Below, piece by piece: positions 11,561 to 29,247 of a stretch of 30,461 nucleotides of DNA (position 1 is its first letter; each line of letters begins with the position of its first letter). The translations under genes and the position numbers were made by a program. The stretch lies in the NCBI GenBank assembly GCA_035273045.1, contig DATEPR010000191.1, positions 1 to 30,461 on the forward strand, given 5' to 3'. The notes beneath the pieces were generated by a model. That model was not told where the DNA came from and searched no databases. It saw only the letters and a list, made by a program, of their open reading frames with translations. The DNA is from Pseudonocardiaceae bacterium (GTDB lineage Bacteria; Actinomycetota; Actinomycetes; Mycobacteriales; Pseudonocardiaceae).

Positions 11561-12694
11561 ATGCCCACCAGAAGGAACTTCCTACGCTGGTCAGCCGCTG
11601 CCGCCGCGCTGGCCGCGATCCCGGTCACCGACCTGGCCACCCGCGCGACCGCCACCGCGGCGACCACCCTGCCGCTGACCGTCGTCAACGACACCGGCCG
11701 CTTCGCGGACACGGCGATCTGGTTCTACATCGTCGGCGTCAACCCGGCCGGCCAGCAGGTCTACGTGCGGGCGGACGGCACGCCGGTGGTGGTGACGCCG
11801 TCGCTGAACGGCCCGGACGGCTTCGCCGACCTGTCCATCCCACTGGGCACCACGGTGAACCTGCCGCAGATGTCCGGGCGGATCTACTTCTCCATCAACG
11901 ACAAGCTGAAGTTCAAGGTGGTCGGCGCCAACGCGCTGCAGTACCCGGCCGGCTGGGTGAGCACGGACCCCAGCTTCAACGTCCTGCACGACTGGGTCGA
12001 GTTCACGCTCAACCCGTCCGGCATGTTCTGCAACACCACGATGGTGGACATGTTCGGCGTCCCGCTGGCCATCCACCTGGCCGGCGCCAGCCAGCAGACC
12101 ACGGGCACCCTCGTGGCCGGTGGCCGCACGGCGATCATGAACGGCATCGCCGCGCAGCCCGGTTTCGGACAACTGGTGCTGGCCAACGGATTGCGGGTGA
12201 TCGCGCCCGGCCACGGCATCGACGCCGGCCTGTTCTCGCCGACCTACTACGACGCCTACGTCAACCAGGTGTGGAGCACGTACACGGCCACGAACCTGAA
12301 CGTCACGGTCAACGGCACCACCCTGGCCGGCCGGGTGTCCGGCGGCAGCCTGGTGTTCGCCGGTGGTGGCGGCACCTTCGCCAAGCCCACCACGCAGGAC
12401 ATCTTCTACTGCGCCGGAGCCCTGGCCCCGCCCGCCGGCACGGCCGGACCGGTCGCCGCCGTGCTCGGCGCCGCGTTCAACCGGTCCACCCTGCTGTCCA
12501 GCGCGCAGCAGCCGGTGAACGACGCGGCCGCCTTCTACCAGAACGCGACCACGAACCACTACGCGCGGATCATCCACCAGAACACCGTGGACGGTAAGGC
12601 GTACGGGTTCCCGTTCGACGACGTCAGCGGGTTCGCCGCCTTCGTCTCGGACGGCGCGCCCACGTCGATCACGGTGACGTTGACCCCGTTCTGA
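11561..12694 (+). CDS. GH64 (thaumatin-like) beta-1,3-glucanase with Tat signal peptide, 377 aa
   Basis: MPTRRNFL twin-arginine signal; DWVEFT...NTTMVDMF (catalytic Glu/Asp region); LRVIAPGHG; NHYARIIH...YGFPFDDV; AGGAGG SD before ATG 11561. Confidence 0.92.
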   Translation: MPTRRNFLRWSAAAAALAAIPVTDLATRATATAATTLPLTVVNDTGRFADTAIWFYIVGVNPAGQQVYVRADGTPVVVTPSLNGPDGFADLSIPLGTTVNLPQMSGRIYFSINDKLKFKVVGANALQYPAGWVSTDPSFNVLHDWVEFTLNPSGMFCNTTMVDMFGVPLAIHLAGASQQTTGTLVAGGRTAIMNGIAAQPGFGQLVLANGLRVIAPGHGIDAGLFSPTYYDAYVNQVWSTYTATNLNVTVNGTTLAGRVSGGSLVFAGGGGTFAKPTTQDIFYCAGALAPPAGTAGPVAAVLGAAFNRSTLLSSAQQPVNDAAAFYQNATTNHYARIIHQNTVDGKAYGFPFDDVSGFAAFVSDGAPTSITVTLTPF

Positions 12695-13373
12695 GCTCGA
12701 TCCAGCCGAGGACCGTGTCGGCGAACTCGTCCGGCCGGCCGGCGTGCACGTTGTGGCCGGCGGGGATCGTGCGGAACGTGGCGTCCGGAATGCGGTCGGC
12801 GGCGTCGGCGAGCAGGTCCTGCGGGATGTGGCTGTCCGGGCCGCCGCCGATGATCAACGCCGGCGCGGTGATGGTGGCCAGCGCGGCCCACAGCCGCGGG
12901 TCCCCGGCGTTCACGGCGCCCACGATCGCGGGGACCACGGCCCAGTCGAACCCGATCGGCTCGGCCGGCCGTTCGGGTAGCGGCCGGTCCCGGCGGTAGG
13001 GCGGCGGAACGTCCTCGACGACGATCCGCGACACCAGGTCCGGCCGGGCGAGCGCGACCCGGTAGGTGACGACGCCACCCATCGAGTGCCCGACGAGCGT
13101 GACGCCGGTCAGCTCCAGCGCGTCCAGGAAGGCGACGGCGTCCGCGCACAGGGCGTCGAACGAGTACACCCCGGGCCGGTCGCTGTCGCCGTGCCCGCGC
13201 TGGTCGACCGCGTACACCCGGTGGTGCCGGGCGAACCGCGCCAGCACCGGTGCCCAGTCCGCCCGCGAGTCGCCGAGCGCGTGCAGCAACACCATCGGCG
13301 GAGCGTCCGGCTCGCCCGTGACGTCGTACCCGAGCCGGACCCCGTTGACCACGATGCTCCTGGCGTCCCCCAT
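12669..13373 (-). CDS. Alpha/beta fold hydrolase, 234 aa, probably leaderless
   Basis: LLHALG, DQRGHGDS, GHSMGG nucleophile elbow, AGHNVH. ATG 13373 lies 6 nt after TACGAT. Overlaps the GH64 3' end by 26 nt. Confidence 0.9.
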   Translation of the reverse strand: MGDARSIVVNGVRLGYDVTGEPDAPPMVLLHALGDSRADWAPVLARFARHHRVYAVDQRGHGDSDRPGVYSFDALCADAVAFLDALELTGVTLVGHSMGGVVTYRVALARPDLVSRIVVEDVPPPYRRDRPLPERPAEPIGFDWAVVPAIVGAVNAGDPRLWAALATITAPALIIGGGPDSHIPQDLLADAADRIPDATFRTIPAGHNVHAGRPDEFADTVLGWIELRTGSTSP

Positions 13374-13421
13374 GCCGGCATCGTACGGCGGTCGTCGGCG
13401 GTGGATGCGACACTGCCGGGC

Positions 13422-14012
13422 ATGATCGGACCCGAAGCGAAGGCGGACCTGCACCGCTACCTGAAGACCGTGCGGGAAGCCGTGCTGTGGAAGCTGGACG
13501 GACTGTCCGAGTACGACGTCCGGCGGCCGCTGACGCCGACCGGTACCAACCTGCTGGGCCTGGTCAAACACCTCGCCACCATGGAGGCGGGGTACTTCGG
13601 CGAGGTCTTCGGCCGTCCGTTCGGCGAACCGCTGCCCTGGATCGCCGACGACGCCGAACCGAACGCCGACATGTGGGCGACCGCGGACGAGTCGCGCGAG
13701 CAGGTCGTCGGGCTGTACCGCCGGTCATGGGCGCACGCGGACGCGACGATCGAAGCGCTCGGGCTGGACGCGACCGGCCACGTCTCCTGGTGGGCGGAGG
13801 GCCGGCGCGAGGTGACGCTGCACCGGATCCTGGTGCACATGATCGCCGAGACCAACCGGCACGCCGGCCACGCCGACATCGTCCGGGAACTCGTCGACGG
13901 AGCCGCCGGGCTCCGCCCGGACGTGGCCAACATGGCGCCCGGCGACCAGGCTTGGTGGGAGAGCTACCGGAACCGGCTGGAGCGGGTGGCGCAGCAGGCC
14001 GGCCGCGGTTAG
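13422..14012 (+). CDS. DinB family / DUF664 protein, 196 aa
   Basis: REAVLWKLDGLSEYDVRRPLTPTGTNLLGLVKH and HMIAETNRHAGHADIVRE motifs. Start moved from 13086 to ATG 13422. Confidence 0.88.
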   Translation: MIGPEAKADLHRYLKTVREAVLWKLDGLSEYDVRRPLTPTGTNLLGLVKHLATMEAGYFGEVFGRPFGEPLPWIADDAEPNADMWATADESREQVVGLYRRSWAHADATIEALGLDATGHVSWWAEGRREVTLHRILVHMIAETNRHAGHADIVRELVDGAAGLRPDVANMAPGDQAWWESYRNRLERVAQQAGRG

Positions 14013-24388: not shown

Positions 24389-26819
24389 TCGTCACGGGCG
24401 CGCTCTGCGGATGTGGCAGAGCGCGCCGCTGAACCGAGGTTGCTGCGGTCTCAGTCGTGAGGCGCGGCTGGTTGGTGTCGTGTGGGCGGTGGGTATTGGT
24501 GCGGCAGCCTGGTGTGTGGGCACGGCGCTTGTCATTTTGTCGACAATCATCTTCGTGGTCGCTCATACCGTGGGTCCGTCGTTGGCCGGCGCCCACCTGG
24601 ACAGTCGTCTCCTCGGTGCCCAGGTAGGGGTGGCTCGCCGACAGCACCACCTGGCCGGTCAGCCCACGGATCGTGCGCAGCCACACGGCCCCGGCGCCGC
24701 CGGCTGCCGCGAAGTCGAACGGGTTGTCGCCGATCAGCACGGCCGGCCCGGTGATGGCGAACGTCACCGGGCCGCTGACGTACGGGCGTGGCGCGCCGTA
24801 CCGGTCGACGGCCCGCACCACGACCCGCGTCGCGTCGGCGCCGTCGGCCATCAGTGTGTCGTCGTCGGCCGCGCAGGACAGCCCGTCCAGCGTCGGGTCG
24901 GCGCTGAAGTTCCTGCGCAGCACCATGCGTTCACCGACATAGCCGTCGATTCGCAGGTCCGGGTGTCCGTGGTGGACGGTCAGGTCGGTGAACCCCGGCT
25001 CGATCACCGGACGAATCGAAGGGTACACTTGGGACTGATAGAAGGCCGCGTCCAGCTTGGGAATCCGGATTACGTCGACGACGCCGGGGTACTTCACGCC
25101 GTCCGCCGAGTGGTACCAGCCGGACGGGTAGTCGAAACCGCACCACGCCAGCAGGCCGCAGTAGCGCGGATCGGCGGCCGCCCGCTCGTGCACCCAGGCG
25201 TGCAGCAGCGCCTGGTCCGCCTGCACGGCGACCGGGTCTACCCGGCGGTAGTGCGGGTGCCCGACCAGCGACCCGATGGCCTCGCTCACCAGGTACGGCA
25301 CGCCCGTCCTCGGCGGCCGCAGGGTGGGCGCGGCGGCCGGCGACCGTAGCGGGCTGTAGTCGTTGAAGGAGAACACCGACGAGCCGCCGGCCGTGGTCGG
25401 GTACAGCGGTTCGGTGTAGCCGCGCCGGCCGGCCACCGCGCCGGTGCACGGCCGGGACGGGTCGAGCCGCTGGGCGAGCAGGTCGGTGCGCTCGTACAGG
25501 GTCAACTGGCCCAGCGTCTCGTTCACCCTGGTGCCCCACACGATCACCGACGGCCGGTTGCGGTCCCGCACCACCATGTCGTGCACGTCGGCCAGCGCCC
25601 TGTCCCGCCACGTCACGTCGCCGACGTAGTCCCAGCCGGGAATCTCCTCCCACACCATGATGCCCAGTTCGTCACATGCGTCCAGAAACGCCGTCGACTG
25701 CGGATAGTGCGAACAGCGCACCATGGTGCAGTTCAGTTCGTGCTTCAGCAGTTCGGCGTCCCTGCGCTGCACCCGGTCCGGCATGGCGCCGCCGACGTAG
25801 GGGTACCACTGGTGCCGGTTCACCCCGAACAGCGTCAGCGGCCTGCCGTTGAGGTAGCAGCCGTCCTCGGTGAACAAGGCTTCCCGGAACCCGGTGCGGA
25901 CCCGGCGGGAGTGCACCTGGCGCCCGCCGACGGACAGCGTCACCAGCACGTCGCACAGCGCCGGGTCGGTCACGTCCCACAGTCGGACCCCGGCCAGCCC
26001 GGTCATGGTCATGGTGACCGCCGTCCGGCCGGCCGCCAGGCCGGTCAGGTCGGTCGACGTGCTCGCCAGCACCGTGCCGTACTGGGACAGCGTCGTCGTC
26101 AGCCGCACCGGGTTCGGCTCGCCGTCCGCCGAGTCGACCTCGCACCGCAGCACGAGGGCGCGGGCGTCGGTGAGCACGTCGACCGGCATCGCGAACACGT
26201 CGTCCAGGTACGTCCTCGGCGTGGCCAGGACCGTTGCCGTCCGGTACATTCCGGCCGGCTGGTAGAAGTCGATCACGGACGGTCGCCGGATGCCCGGTCG
26301 GTCCGGCGGGACGTCCTGCCGCCACCGGCCGTCCACGGTGACCGCGAGCACGTTGCCCTTCGCGGTGAGCAACCCGGTCATCTCACACGTCAGCGGCAGG
26401 TAACCGCCGACGGCCGAACCGATCCGGCGCCCGTTGAGTAACACCTCGACGGCGCTGAGCACGCCCTCCAGCCGCACGAACGCCCGGCCGGCCCGCAGCT
26501 CGTGCGGTGCGTCGAAGTGCTGCCGGTACACCCACAACGTCTCCCATGCCGCCGGCTGCCAGTCCCGCCAGGACAGTGGCGTCACGCAGTGCGGCACGGT
26601 GACCGTGGCGAGCCGGCTGTCGTCGTAGTCGGCGTCGGCGCAGCCGGCCGCGTACTCGCCGAACAGCCACTGGTCGCCGAACGGCCCACTGGCCAGCGGC
26701 GTGGTGGAGCTGAACAGCAACGCCCCCAACGACGTGGCGCTCGCCACGCCGGCACCGAGTCCGATGAGGAATGCGCGGCGGGACGGCCCCGCCGGTCGCC
26801 CGCCGGTCGCGTCGTCCAC
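24357..26819 (-). CDS. GH2 glycoside hydrolase (beta-galactosidase/glucuronidase-like) with Tat signal; possibly degenerate (internal deletion, read-through tail)
   Basis: SRRAFL Tat motif after GTG 26819 (GGAGG SD); GVNRHQ; VRCSHYPQ; RDRNRPSVIVWGTRVNE (acid/base); YLVSEAIG (nucleophile); ADGADATRV Ig domain. Confidence 0.85.
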   Translation of the reverse strand: MDDATGGRPAGPSRRAFLIGLGAGVASATSLGALLFSSTTPLASGPFGDQWLFGEYAAGCADADYDDSRLATVTVPHCVTPLSWRDWQPAAWETLWVYRQHFDAPHELRAGRAFVRLEGVLSAVEVLLNGRRIGSAVGGYLPLTCEMTGLLTAKGNVLAVTVDGRWRQDVPPDRPGIRRPSVIDFYQPAGMYRTATVLATPRTYLDDVFAMPVDVLTDARALVLRCEVDSADGEPNPVRLTTTLSQYGTVLASTSTDLTGLAAGRTAVTMTMTGLAGVRLWDVTDPALCDVLVTLSVGGRQVHSRRVRTGFREALFTEDGCYLNGRPLTLFGVNRHQWYPYVGGAMPDRVQRRDAELLKHELNCTMVRCSHYPQSTAFLDACDELGIMVWEEIPGWDYVGDVTWRDRALADVHDMVVRDRNRPSVIVWGTRVNETLGQLTLYERTDLLAQRLDPSRPCTGAVAGRRGYTEPLYPTTAGGSSVFSFNDYSPLRSPAAAPTLRPPRTGVPYLVSEAIGSLVGHPHYRRVDPVAVQADQALLHAWVHERAAADPRYCGLLAWCGFDYPSGWYHSADGVKYPGVVDVIRIPKLDAAFYQSQVYPSIRPVIEPGFTDLTVHHGHPDLRIDGYVGERMVLRRNFSADPTLDGLSCAADDDTLMADGADATRVVVRAVDRYGAPRPYVSGPVTFAITGPAVLIGDNPFDFAAAGGAGAVWLRTIRGLTGQVVLSASHPYLGTEETTVQVGAGQRRTHGMSDHEDDCRQNDKRRAHTPGCRTNTHRPHDTNQPRLTTETAATSVQRRALPHPQSAPVTISGCRAARGA

Positions 26820-26941
26820 CAGCACCTCCCCGTCAACCCACGCGCGACGACCGCTTGGCGGCGTCCAGATTGCCGGGATGGGTGTGGGGACAGCATGAGC
26901 GAGCCGGCGAGGAACGATCGCGTGCAAGTGTCGGCGGCGCG

Positions 26942-26971
26942 TTGACACCCCTGATCGGCGCCGCAGAGAAT
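26942..26971 (+). promoter_or_regulatory. Promoter of the condensation gene: TTGACA-N18-GAGAAT
   Basis: Consensus -35 at 26942-26947, -10 at 26966-26971, GGGAG SD before ATG 27004. Confidence 0.65.
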
Positions 26972-27003
26972 TCCGTCGCGGAACACGACGGTGGGAGTCC
27001 GGC

Positions 27004-28380
27004 ATGACAGGTCAGATCCTCGTTCCGTTCGATGGAGAGGGTGCTGGCGTCGAGGACCTCACATGGGGGCAGATCGGCTTCTGGCAGGGGATCGCGGAGG
27101 CGGGACGGTCGCTCACCATGGGCGGCGTGACCTCGCTGCCGCCCGGCCTCACCGTCGACGACTTGGCGGAGGCCCTGCGGTTCGCCATGTCACGGCACCA
27201 GTCGCTGCGCACCCGGCTGCGCCTGGACCCGAACGGCGGGCGGCCCAAGCAGGTGTGCTCGTCGTCCGGCGTGGTGCCGATGGAGATCGTGGACGTCGAC
27301 GCGGCAGGCGACCCGGCCGCCGTCGCCGACGAGGTGCTGGCCCGCTACGAGGAGCGGCACTTCGACTACGAACACGAGTGGCCGGTCCGGATGGCGGTGA
27401 TCCGGCACGACGGCCGCATCACCCACGGCGTCGTGATCTACCTGCACACCGCCATCGACGCGGGCGGCCTGGACGTGCTGCTCGCCGACCTGGCCGCCCG
27501 CGACCCGAGGACCGGTGCGGCCAGGGGGCCGGTCACCGCGACGCAGCCGCTGGCCCAGTCCCGGCAGCAGCGCAACGCCGCGGCCCGCCGGACCTGCCAG
27601 TCGTCACTGCGCCACCTGGAACACGTGCTGCGCACGGTCAGCCTGAACCGGTTCGGCGAACCGCGGTACGGCGACGAGCTGGCCATCCGGTTGATCCGCT
27701 ACCACTCGCCGGCGACCGCCCTGGCGGTCACGCGGATCGCGGCGCAGGAGAACGCCAACACGTCGTCGGTGCTGCTGGCCTGTTTCGCCGTGGGCCTGGC
27801 CCGGTTCACCGGCAACAACCCGGTGATGGCCATGGTGCTGGTGAGCAACCGGTTCCGGCCCGGGTTCGCCGAGTCGGTCAGCCCGGTGGTCCAGGTGAGC
27901 CCCTACCTGATCGACGTCGCCGACGTGTCGCTCAGCGAGGCCGTCAGCCGCGCGAAGGTCAGCGTGCTGAACACCTACAAGAACGCCTATTACGATCCCT
28001 ACGAGCAGGACGCCGTCATCGAACGGGTCAACGTGGAACGCGGCGCGGAAGTCGACATGTCGTGTTTCTACAATGACCGCCGCCGAGGTGACCGGGGACC
28101 GGCGGCGGGACCGTTGCCGTCGGCCGCCGACATCACCGCGGCACTGGCCGCCGCGGATTACCGGTGGGAACACGAAGCCGACCCGCCGCGGCGCAAACTC
28201 TACTTCAACGTCGACGATCCGCCGGGCGCCATCGACTTCGCGATGTCCGCGGACACCAGGTACTTCGACGACGACGACATGATCGCCATCGTCCGGGGCG
28301 TCGAAGCCGCCGCCGTGGCGGCCGCGCTGGAGCCGGCCGCGCCGACCGGTGTCCGGACACCGGCGTCGATTCGGCTCTGA
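27004..28380 (+). CDS. Stand-alone NRPS-type condensation-domain protein, 458 aa
   Basis: LTWGQIGFW (C1-like), RHQSLRTR (C2), FDYEHEWPVR, active-site variant YLHTAIDAGG (HHxxxDG-like), SNRFRPGFAESVSP. No A or T domain. Confidence 0.85.
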   Translation: MTGQILVPFDGEGAGVEDLTWGQIGFWQGIAEAGRSLTMGGVTSLPPGLTVDDLAEALRFAMSRHQSLRTRLRLDPNGGRPKQVCSSSGVVPMEIVDVDAAGDPAAVADEVLARYEERHFDYEHEWPVRMAVIRHDGRITHGVVIYLHTAIDAGGLDVLLADLAARDPRTGAARGPVTATQPLAQSRQQRNAAARRTCQSSLRHLEHVLRTVSLNRFGEPRYGDELAIRLIRYHSPATALAVTRIAAQENANTSSVLLACFAVGLARFTGNNPVMAMVLVSNRFRPGFAESVSPVVQVSPYLIDVADVSLSEAVSRAKVSVLNTYKNAYYDPYEQDAVIERVNVERGAEVDMSCFYNDRRRGDRGPAAGPLPSAADITAALAAADYRWEHEADPPRRKLYFNVDDPPGAIDFAMSADTRYFDDDDMIAIVRGVEAAAVAAALEPAAPTGVRTPASIRL

Positions 28381-28548
28381 ACGTTCCGCGCGCATTGTCG
28401 CGGCACCTTCGCGCCCGTATTTCCCAAGACGGTTGGGATTGGAGCCACAATGCCGGCTCCGGCTCCCGGAGCTGGTTTACTCGATTCGTTCATCGGGCCC
28501 GGTGAATTGTTCGCCCGTGTCGATTCCGTAGGGAAGGGGGGTGGCATC

Positions 28549-28605
28549 ATGCGCAGGTCGGTCAAGTCGTTCCGCACGGTGATCAAGCGCACGGAGATCA
28601 AGTAA
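28549..28605 (+). CDS. Putative 18-aa cationic micropeptide MRRSVKSFRTVIKRTEIK
   Basis: All 18 codons end in G/C amid an AT-richer intergenic region. AAGGGGGGTG SD-like tract upstream; TAA stop; hairpin downstream. Below the ORF-track cutoff. Confidence 0.6.
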   Translation: MRRSVKSFRTVIKRTEIK

Positions 28606-28624
28606 CGAGCTTCCCACACGGATG

Positions 28625-28660
28625 GGCGGGGGTGGCGGCACCGTGACTGCCACCCCCGTT
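28625..28660 (+). terminator. GC-rich hairpin after the micropeptide ORF (terminator or RNA stabiliser)
   Basis: CGGGGGTGGCGG (28627-28638) pairs with CTGCCACCCCCG (28647-28658): 12-bp stem with one G-U pair, 8-nt loop. Confidence 0.7.
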
Positions 28661-28680
28661 GGGTGTCCTAGGCTCGGGCG

Positions 28681-29142
28681 ATGGCCACCGAGATCGAACG
28701 CAAGTTCCTGGTCGCGCTCGACTGGTCACCGGGCGAACTGGACCCGACCCCGGTCCGCCAGGGCTACCTGACCGACAACGGTGCCGGCACCGAGATCCGG
28801 GTGCGCGCGCACGGCCAGCGGCGCCTGATGACCGTGAAGCGCCGCCGCTCGTCGGCCGGCGCCGCGGTGCGGGACGAGATCGAGTTCGCCGTCCCCGACC
28901 AAGTCTTCGACGAGCTCTGGCTGCTCACCGAGGGCCAGCGGGTGGCGAAGCTCCGTTACGCGGTGCCGCTCGGCGAGTTGCAGGCGACCGTGGACGTGTA
29001 CGCCGACCGCAACGACGGCCTCCGCGTCGTCGAGGTGGAGTTCCCCAGCGAGCAGGCCGCGGCCGAGTTCACGCCGCCCGAATGGTTCGGTCCGGAGGTC
29101 ACCGGAGACCCCCGCTACAGCAACCGCCGCCTCGCCCAGTAG
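28681..29142 (+). CDS. CYTH domain protein (triphosphate tunnel metalloenzyme), probably leaderless
   Basis: EIERKFLV (ExExK), RQGYL, EIRVR, RDEIE, K-R-Y, EVEF, DPRYSN. TAGGCT 6 nt before the ATG. Confidence 0.92.
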   Translation: MATEIERKFLVALDWSPGELDPTPVRQGYLTDNGAGTEIRVRAHGQRRLMTVKRRRSSAGAAVRDEIEFAVPDQVFDELWLLTEGQRVAKLRYAVPLGELQATVDVYADRNDGLRVVEVEFPSEQAAAEFTPPEWFGPEVTGDPRYSNRRLAQ

Positions 29143-29247
29143 CCCTTACCGAACCCGAACACAACGTCGACCTCACGCTCACGCCCGCCTGCCAGCCTCA
29201 TCGTGCAGTGCCCACCACGGGCGCCGACGACGAGGAGGCAACGATCC

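Follow-up and report, generated by a model that had tools for sequence, protein, structure and literature searches.

Biarylitides (biarylicins) are minimal RiPPs (peptides made by the ribosome and altered after translation), in which an 18-bp pentapeptide gene, bycA/bytA (encoding MRYYH), is accompanied by one P450 (bioRxiv 10.1101/2020.07.21.214643). Here, we analyze a comparable arrangement in a stretch of DNA of 30,461 nucleotides (GenBank assembly GCA_035273045.1, contig DATEPR010000191.1, here C191), referred to as the window in its whole length, from an uncultured genus of Pseudonocardiaceae with about 70% G+C. The arrangement consists of a gene for a free-standing condensation (C) enzyme of the nonribosomal peptide synthetase (NRPS) type and, downstream of it, an 18-codon minigene. 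In both systems, which belong to actinomycetes, a five-codon gene led by a Shine-Dalgarno (SD) sequence can lie within a few hundred base pairs of a single tailoring-type enzyme, the minigene follows a single branch in the phylogeny of a large family of enzymes and is missed by gene finders, and a basic residue precedes a conserved core. The enzyme differs, i.e., an NRPS-type condensation domain in place of a P450, so that an activated thioester donor would be needed, and the motif is [IV]-K rather than Y-x-Y/H. Unlike the biarylitide genes, many members of the present family are expanded to 2–4 tandem units, and the pair is known from its genes, without a product.

For the enzyme, the best matches in sequence and fold are SgcC5 and Bamb_5915, which are likewise single-domain C enzymes with a catalytic His-Asp pair. 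Bamb_5915 (6CGO), the enzyme of enacyloxin chain release, transfers an acyl group bound to a peptidyl carrier protein (PCP) to the free acceptor dihydroxycyclohexane carboxylic acid (DHCCA). SgcC5, of C-1027 biosynthesis, presumably also joins a carrier-bound acyl group to a free acceptor; its identity as the matched structure (4ZNM) was confirmed here. Both are only 14–22% identical to the C protein of the window, their acceptors are small metabolites and not ribosomal peptides, and no minigene has been reported beside them.

Two other kinds of very small gene invite comparison. In microcin C, the 21-bp gene mccA encodes a heptapeptide and the neighboring MccB, a ThiF/E1-like adenylating enzyme, acts on its C-terminal Asn; direct modification of the peptide by a neighboring enzyme, with no long leader, is a feature of microcin C and is proposed for the present pair, which has no relationship to it in sequence or enzyme. 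Leader attenuators, such as those of trp and his, cat-86 (MVKTD) and erm, also combine a tiny SD-led open reading frame (ORF), hairpins and a gene, and some members of the present family, such as MAVKD, are similar to pentapeptide leaders in size and composition. In this family, by contrast, there are no runs of a single regulatory amino acid, an alternative antiterminator was not found, a downstream gene is lacking for many copies, and the constant partner is the adjacent C gene, on either side.

Results

The 18-codon ORF as a conserved gene

The C gene lies at 27,004–28,380 on the forward strand and encodes a protein of 458 aa. An earlier note, made from the letters of the window, had described it as a stand-alone gene with its own promoter, and both were present: a sigma-70-like promoter, TTGACA-N18-GAGAAT, at 26,942–26,971 (forward strand) was the only promoter-like match in 26,800–28,800, where 0.1 were expected from shuffled sequence, and an upstream alignment showed TTGACA and GAGAAT or GACAAT to be kept in seven related loci. 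The same note had placed an 18-codon ORF 168 nt past the C stop, closed by a strong hairpin. This distance was exact: the ORF starts with ATG at 28,549, encodes MRRSVKSFRTVIKRTEIK and ends with TAA at 28,603–28,605 (28,549–28,605, forward strand). It follows a strong SD, GGGAAGGGGGGTGG, at 28,531–28,544 (forward strand), and an SD of the GGRGGTG type was read before every member of the family. The hairpin, at 28,625–28,660 on the forward strand, is G+C-rich and terminator-like without a U-tract, with a minimum free energy (MFE) of –40.3 kcal/mol (z = –3.4), and was kept at the same place in orthologous loci though the stem sequences differ.

To describe conservation we use labels G### for genomes (G000 being the source genome), L### for C loci and contig loci, and X15 and X16 for two soil RNA libraries. 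The element's 5' part was described by a covariance model (R1), which in the window matched 28,427–28,560 and which found 14 strong copies in 11 of the 12 genomes of the genus, and none in the 150 other genomes of the family that were searched with it. Homologs in the genus, 12–25 codons long and located downstream of orthologous C genes, read MRSV[KR]SARSIESRTVIKRLQVK, MRNVRSARSVKSLRSVISARASVKQ, MRRSVKSARTSVKQ, MRSVKSARMVIK and MRSVKSARNVKSARNSVKQ. When the first eight codons were compared among six copies, codon positions 1/2/3 showed 1/2/9 extra nucleotide states; the frame was preserved through insertions and deletions of repeat units, and the SD and ATG were conserved. In the minigenes, rare codons and TAA/TAG stops are enriched and the last sense codon is usually AAG. 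Judged by these patterns, the 18-codon ORF is a real, translated-looking, conserved gene.

Soil metatranscriptome contigs (X15 and X16) from a 90–95% identical relative cover the ORF, which shows that the minigene sequence is present in these libraries and not that it is translated, and DNA carry-over is possible. In this relative the peptide carries K6Q and F8V, and one five-codon unit (RTVIK; positions 28,573–28,587 of the window) has been lost by an in-frame 15-nt deletion; the number of repeats is thus polymorphic among close strains. In an exact look-up in a collection of 15 billion proteins, the 22-aa micro-ORF of G008 and the 24-aa micro-ORF of G004 were absent, the 18-aa peptide of the window being too short for the look-up. 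Searches of Pfam and NCBIfam with an extended 51-aa frame gave no match; the 18-aa peptide itself is too short for these searches.

Minigenes beside C genes in at least six genera

We scanned the flanks of C genes across genera, at 80 named C loci and 78 metagenome loci. Tiny SD-led ORFs on the same strand ending in [VIAL]K(x) were found beside 21–22 of the 80 named loci, versus 2 of 80 on the control strand, and all such minigenes adjoin C proteins at least 52.7% identical to that of the window. They come from Actinokineospora, Solihabitans, Actinophytocola, Labedaea, Jatrophihabitans and the source genus, i.e., at least six genera, so that a neighboring micro-ORF is conserved beside homologous C genes; its lack is what the earlier note had named as evidence against a coupled pair. 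Beyond the uncultured soil genus, the pairing is carried by type strains of Actinokineospora that are in culture, A. auranticolor DSM 44650 among the cultured carriers, and by Solihabitans fulvus.

The position of the minigene relative to the C gene varies. At six named loci of Actinokineospora (L082–L099) it encodes MIEIK and overlaps the C stop by ATGA, with its SD inside the end of the C coding sequence, and in a seventh species of that genus (G085) the minigene abuts the end of the C gene and is present as two MIEIK copies in tandem, both led by an SD of their own. Downstream positions are also found for the multi-unit MIEIKRVAVKRVAVKN of Solihabitans and for MSIKQ of Jatrophihabitans, both with a 5' element of their own and the latter with GGTTTACT before it, as well as for MIEIK or MVEIK beside a second C paralog of the source genus. 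In Actinophytocola and Labedaea, MAVKD, MAVKE or MAAKD lies 130–160 nt upstream of the C gene, and at other loci MIVAKP, MVAPVAPAKP, MRELIKRELIK and repeats of MRIEDKP occupy various positions. A further type, MTIIEPVQSPR, lies downstream of C genes and is free of Lys.

Two unbiased pattern scans gave the same association. Across 301 genomes of the family, all four tiny-ORF matches to a motif/SD pattern adjoined a C gene, and across 401 genomes of the order the four matches to a MIEIK pattern all stood directly after a C gene, with none among the controls. In a tree of 78 C proteins, all bearers of a minigene fell into one clade of 40 rows (Shimodaira-Hasegawa-like approximate likelihood ratio test, SH-aLRT, 99) and none into its sister clade of 38 rows, with a minimum of six state changes. 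Other C paralogs of G000 (two on contig C292 and one on C137) had no minigene, and L030 of C292, the one of them placed in the tree, fell in the minigene-free clade. MIEIK is identical in Actinokineospora, in G009 and as the first five residues of the Solihabitans peptide, despite about 40% divergence of the C proteins.

The peptide of the window is built of R-x-x-[IV]-K units, RTVIK-RTEIK. Together with the C-linked minigenes elsewhere, this makes it a repeat-expanded member of an old C-linked family. On comparative grounds, this is a family of minigenes of 5–25 codons, with MIEIK as archetype and x-x-[E/V]-[I/V]-K as unit, co-inherited with one clade of C enzymes, and we consider it highly probable that C gene and minigene are functionally coupled in some way.

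Beside more distant C paralogs (38–40% identity; L213, L232, L234–L236 and L239, on metagenome contigs), tiny SD-led ORFs encoding MFGLKG, MKLVREL or MIVREL lie 115–145 nt upstream; such ORFs may thus be more widespread than the clade studied.

The condensation enzyme and its potential partner genes

PF00668 (Condensation) matched residues 30–332, covering N- and C-lobes, with a score of 70.9 bits (cut-off 30.6; E 1.1e-19). The active site reads L-H148-T-A-I-D152-A-G-G, a variant of HHxxxDG in which Leu replaces the first His, a difference from SgcC5 and Bamb_5915, and Ala replaces the motif Gly; the second His and the Asp are intact, H148 and D152 being invariant among 17 homologs. An AlphaFold model (pLDDT 86.5) showed a two-lobed fold like that of chloramphenicol acetyltransferase, and the best Foldseek matches were SgcC5 (1.6e-21) and Bamb_5915 (4.4e-21), with many NRPS C domains at about 1e-20. 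As modeled, the enzyme has a C-domain fold and an intact H...D catalytic pair.

The earlier note had called the C enzyme an orphan, with no adenylation domain, carrier protein, polyketide synthase (PKS) or thioesterase in 30 kb. A profile search of contig C191 gave no match for PP-binding, AMP-binding or ketosynthase families. A further ORF on the reverse strand (12,969–13,268, within 12,669–13,571), which encodes an alpha/beta-hydrolase and lies about 14 kb from the C gene, showed a marginal match to Thioesterase PF00975 (31.7 bits), the only match to an NRPS/PKS-associated family on the contig besides the C gene, and to this extent the statement on thioesterases has to be amended.

The assembly consists of 693 contigs and is 71% complete, and homologs of potential partners occur on other contigs of G000. 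Contig C537 carries an aminoacyl-tRNA synthetase (aaRS)-like gene, E1 alpha and E1 beta, 66–82% identical to genes of Actinokineospora and followed, in place of a C gene, by a gene for a probable exported protein of the solute-binding type (judged by its N-terminal sequence only). Contig C292 carries PCP-C-C, a glycosyltransferase and an ABC transporter. These homologs, split over at least two contigs, make the C gene of the window an orphan only locally. Since C537 holds a ketosynthase and an AMP-binding gene as well, together with another C paralog, a hybrid cluster may be hidden by the fragmented assembly.

In Actinokineospora auranticolor, by comparison, such genes stand together in an apparently uncharacterised biosynthetic cluster (L160/L161, G317:C1:5226000-5259000). 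It contains three stand-alone C genes, one of them (C1) with MIEIK, a stand-alone PCP, a truncated class-II aaRS-like ligase, E1 alpha and E1 beta, as well as HPPD-like and PhyH dioxygenases, an ABC transporter, a glycosyltransferase and a LuxR regulator. Listed by groups, these are the dioxygenases, transporter and glycosyltransferase; C2, PCP, aaRS-like ligase and E1 alpha/beta; C1-MIEIK; a FAD/NAD(P)-binding protein and Lyase_1; and C3 and LuxR. The FAD/NAD(P)-binding and Lyase_1 proteins presumably resemble the nitrite-forming pair CreE/CreD. Homologous C genes do, then, sit with carrier and activating genes elsewhere, as far as the PCP and the aaRS-like ligase of Actinokineospora go, an arrangement that had been expected to speak against a pairing with the peptide. 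Partner genes for carrier-bound donors are, by their homology, present in the genome, and the PCP/aaRS-like ligase neighborhood of the Actinokineospora homolog hints indirectly at a carrier-protein thioester as a candidate donor for the C enzyme.

Discussion

A proposed peptide acceptor for a free-standing C enzyme

Of the readings considered, the one that fits best is a minimal pair of enzyme and peptide, comparable to the biarylitides, with the peptide as acyl acceptor; we propose it tentatively and regard it as quite possible and short of probable. By analogy to SgcC5 and Bamb_5915, the C enzyme would pass an acyl or aminoacyl group, bound to a stand-alone carrier protein, on to a Lys side chain or the N-terminus of the ribosomal peptide. 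Loading of this carrier would fall to the aaRS-like ligase and the E1 enzymes, whose genes lie elsewhere in the genome, and tandem units and tandem minigenes would supply several acceptor sites. That the peptide is the substrate, and which residue would be modified, we infer. The wider proposal, that a clade of free-standing C enzymes off-loads carrier-bound building blocks onto Lys of ribosomal micro-peptides, is more tentative still.

Several features favor a peptide that acts in trans. The minigene stays by the C gene while its position shifts between overlapping, downstream and upstream, which speaks for a trans-acting product. At five loci the gene that comes next is convergent, or apparently so (G005a, where it is an amine oxidase gene, and G085 by search; Solihabitans, G009:C16 and G001:C529 by reading of the sequence); this leaves no gene for regulation in cis and again speaks for a trans product. 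Duplications of whole minigenes and of units look like changes of dosage, which would favor a peptide in trans, as would the Lys-free peptides of genomes that lack the C gene and the identity of MIEIK across the divergence of the C proteins. The enzyme, with its invariant H148 and D152, its likeness in fold to free-acceptor C enzymes and the PCP, ligase and E1 homologs in the genome, would suit such a peptide as well. In the genus, Lys-free peptides were found in three C-less genomes and in one metagenome contig, placed with them by its peptide type, so that the Lys content of the peptide appears to track the C gene.

Other observations weigh against an acceptor peptide. In every genome of the genus that could be read through, a CYTH-domain gene (triphosphate tunnel metalloenzyme; 28,681–29,142, forward strand; PF01928, E 4.5e-08) lies directly 3' of the primary element, while the C gene lies upstream in 8 of 11; the layout of enzyme and minigene that the earlier note had drawn is real and needs correction by this constant downstream gene and by the three genomes with no preceding C gene. 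Contigs of both RNA libraries link the minigene, across the hairpin, with CYTH, which would suit a leader and is not proof of one transcript. Related minigenes do not all encode Lys (MTIIEPVQSPR, MSFVEPVQS, MIVREL). A predicted complex of the C protein and the peptide scored 0.01, which the tool rates as no evidence either way. No precedent for a free ribosomal peptide as substrate of a C domain was found in the literature searched, five-residue peptides have no room for a recognition leader, the independent evolutionary events are few, and most of the independent evidence comes from relatives and not from the window.

The earlier note had likened the locus to the usual layout of RiPPs; a layout of leader and core is inapplicable to peptides of five residues, and the biarylitide pentapeptide gene is the nearest precedent; the module cannot be filed as a RiPP, and modification of the peptide is proposed by analogy. 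The literature searched on MIEIK, on hybrids of C domains and RiPPs and on nitrosuccinate with C domains described no such pair. If the proposal is true, the family would represent the first case of a RiPP-like class with a C domain as tailoring enzyme, and a direct hybrid of ribosomal and non-ribosomal synthesis, and the genes involved would tie with the smallest known (18-bp MIEIK). Stand-alone C enzymes are common in actinomycete genomes, mostly without an assigned substrate, and genes of 5–25 codons escape annotation; a co-inherited minigene is a concrete and cheap hypothesis for the substrate of such an enzyme. A peptide acceptor would represent a new join of ribosomal and non-ribosomal chemistry and would offer a handle for mining, i.e., the flanks of C genes searched for SD-led [IV]-K minigenes.

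A possible cis-acting leader

The main rival is a cis-acting leader, in which translation of the minigene would remodel a helix between the 5' motif and the stop codon, together with the hairpins, and so set termination or read-through into the next gene. That gene would be CYTH in the window and a presumably CreE-like gene in Actinokineospora, whereas for Actinophytocola and Labedaea it would be the C gene. We consider this unlikely. In its favor, a structured 5' region, an SD, a tiny ORF, one or two hairpins and a gene are the parts of an attenuator, and tiny ORFs stand 115–160 nt before C genes in several lineages, distant ones included (MAVKD, MFGLKG, MKLVREL). In G004, G002 and G011 the SD of CYTH lies about 25 nt past the hairpin, so that CYTH must be transcribed through it in these genomes, and the contigs of the RNA libraries join minigene, hairpin and CYTH. 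GGUUUACU was predicted to pair with the stop-codon region in 10 of 23 MFE folds, and enriched rare codons and TAA/TAG stops would suit a leader.

Against this, the convergent or apparently convergent next genes, at at least five loci, leave a leader with nothing to regulate, and inspection of L077 and L091 revealed no mutually exclusive pairing of terminator and antiterminator. The hairpin of the window has no U-tract, and CYTH in the C-bearing lineage has a leaderless-type, -10-like hexamer of its own: TAGGCT (28,669–28,674, forward strand) lies 6 nt before the CYTH ATG, which suggests a leaderless start, and TANNNT followed after 6–7 nt by ATG or GTG is conserved before CYTH in this lineage. 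In G004, G002, G011 and G010, CYTH is instead led by an SD, and the mode of translation initiation of CYTH seems to have switched within one genus. Nor would a leader be expected to undergo tandem duplication of whole minigenes or to stay strictly beside the C gene as its position changes. Should the minigene be a leader after all, it would stand for a new kind of tiny regulatory ORF, one linked to genes of secondary metabolism.

Possible synteny without coupling, and other possible roles

Rather improbable is a small basic peptide that is independent, or a partner of CYTH, and that stands beside the C gene by inherited synteny with no functional coupling. The constancy of CYTH after the primary element is consistent with it, as are the three genomes (G004, G002, G011) in which the upstream position is taken by an unrelated gene without a Pfam match (87% identical between two of them). 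Both the CYTH ortholog and the long-form element are nearly confined to the genus within the family; the only CYTH ortholog found outside the genus, in G111, had no minigene upstream. The substitutions K6Q and F8V and the lost unit of the 90–95% identical relative also point to fast evolution of the peptide. However, the extra copies in G005a and G006b go with a C paralog of 62–64% identity and have no CYTH downstream, and in other genera and families the same C clade has minigenes where there is no CYTH. An early reading of the minigene as a mere leader of CYTH, with accidental synteny to the C gene, was downgraded for the same reasons: in other genera this C clade has adjoining minigenes too, and there are duplicates of C gene plus minigene that lack CYTH.

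The minigene might also serve the C enzyme in another manner, either by an accessory or regulatory peptide made in stoichiometric amounts or by yielding short peptidyl-tRNA used as acyl donor, which strikes us as quite improbable. ATGA coupling in Actinokineospora would yield about 1:1 production with the enzyme; very short ORFs with a strong SD are prone to peptidyl-tRNA drop-off, and the last sense codon is usually AAG. On the other side, we know of no C-domain enzyme that uses a tRNA ester as donor, the repeat-expanded forms of 12–25 codons are unfit as generators of drop-off, and binding as an accessory gained no support from the complex prediction, its score being uninformative. A chance frame in a conserved non-coding RNA or terminator region, for which one could cite the upstream non-coding block, better conserved than the ORF, and the lack of database annotation for the two micro-ORFs looked up, is scarcely credible given the concentration of variation at third positions (1/2/9), the frame kept through many insertions and deletions, the conserved SD and ATG, MIEIK identical over about 40% C divergence and the lack of an Rfam family at the locus.

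Parts of the minigene element and further matches

Upstream of the SD, the element has two conserved blocks in 13 aligned copies. Block A (GACGGTTGGGATTSGAGCCACAATG; 28,428–28,452, forward strand), which the match of the covariance model takes in, is probably the promoter/operator region of the minigene element. Block B (28,472–28,529, forward strand) consists of the motif CTGGTTTACTC (28,472–28,482), a hairpin, P1 (28,488–28,507), and a 3' flank. Within it, GGTTTACT is invariant, and one pair of P1 is kept through a two-sided change (G-C to A-U) in 2 of the 13 sequences. The motif of block B was also found before minigenes of other genera and families. In G010 two elements stand in tandem.

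A search of Rfam 15 over 26,500–29,200 at E ≤ 1 gave only a chance-level match to ASdes within the C gene (18 bits, gathering threshold 40; E 0.83), and no terminator-like site with a T-run was found in 26,800–28,800. Weaker matches to the covariance model occurred in G018, G045 and G103 (E 0.002–0.007), and the weak matches in G003 and G010:C43 proved spurious, being coding sequence or an unrelated palindrome.

Upstream of the C gene, the motif GGAACGATCGCGTGCAAG (26,911–26,928, forward strand) lies about 15 nt 5' of the -35 box of the C promoter and is conserved at this place before orthologous and paralogous C genes; it is possibly the binding site of a regulator.

For GGTTTACT, a role as -35 box was considered: it has such a role in an unrelated promoter family of an AAA-ATPase, but minigene elements have no -10 at 16–18 nt, so that the role is doubtful in them. 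On inspection, neither a SigF-type reading nor one of the extracytoplasmic function (ECF) type fitted. The promoter family in question was seen in six genomes of Pseudonocardiaceae (L149–L151, L156–L158), where a promoter-like TGC-GGTTTACT-N16-TANNNT-like sequence and then an SD precede the gene of an AAA-type ATPase that is conserved and about 430 aa long (MLRSFRLGNHRSF...GANASGKSNLL); this promoter-like sequence shares only the GGTTTACT octamer with the minigene element.

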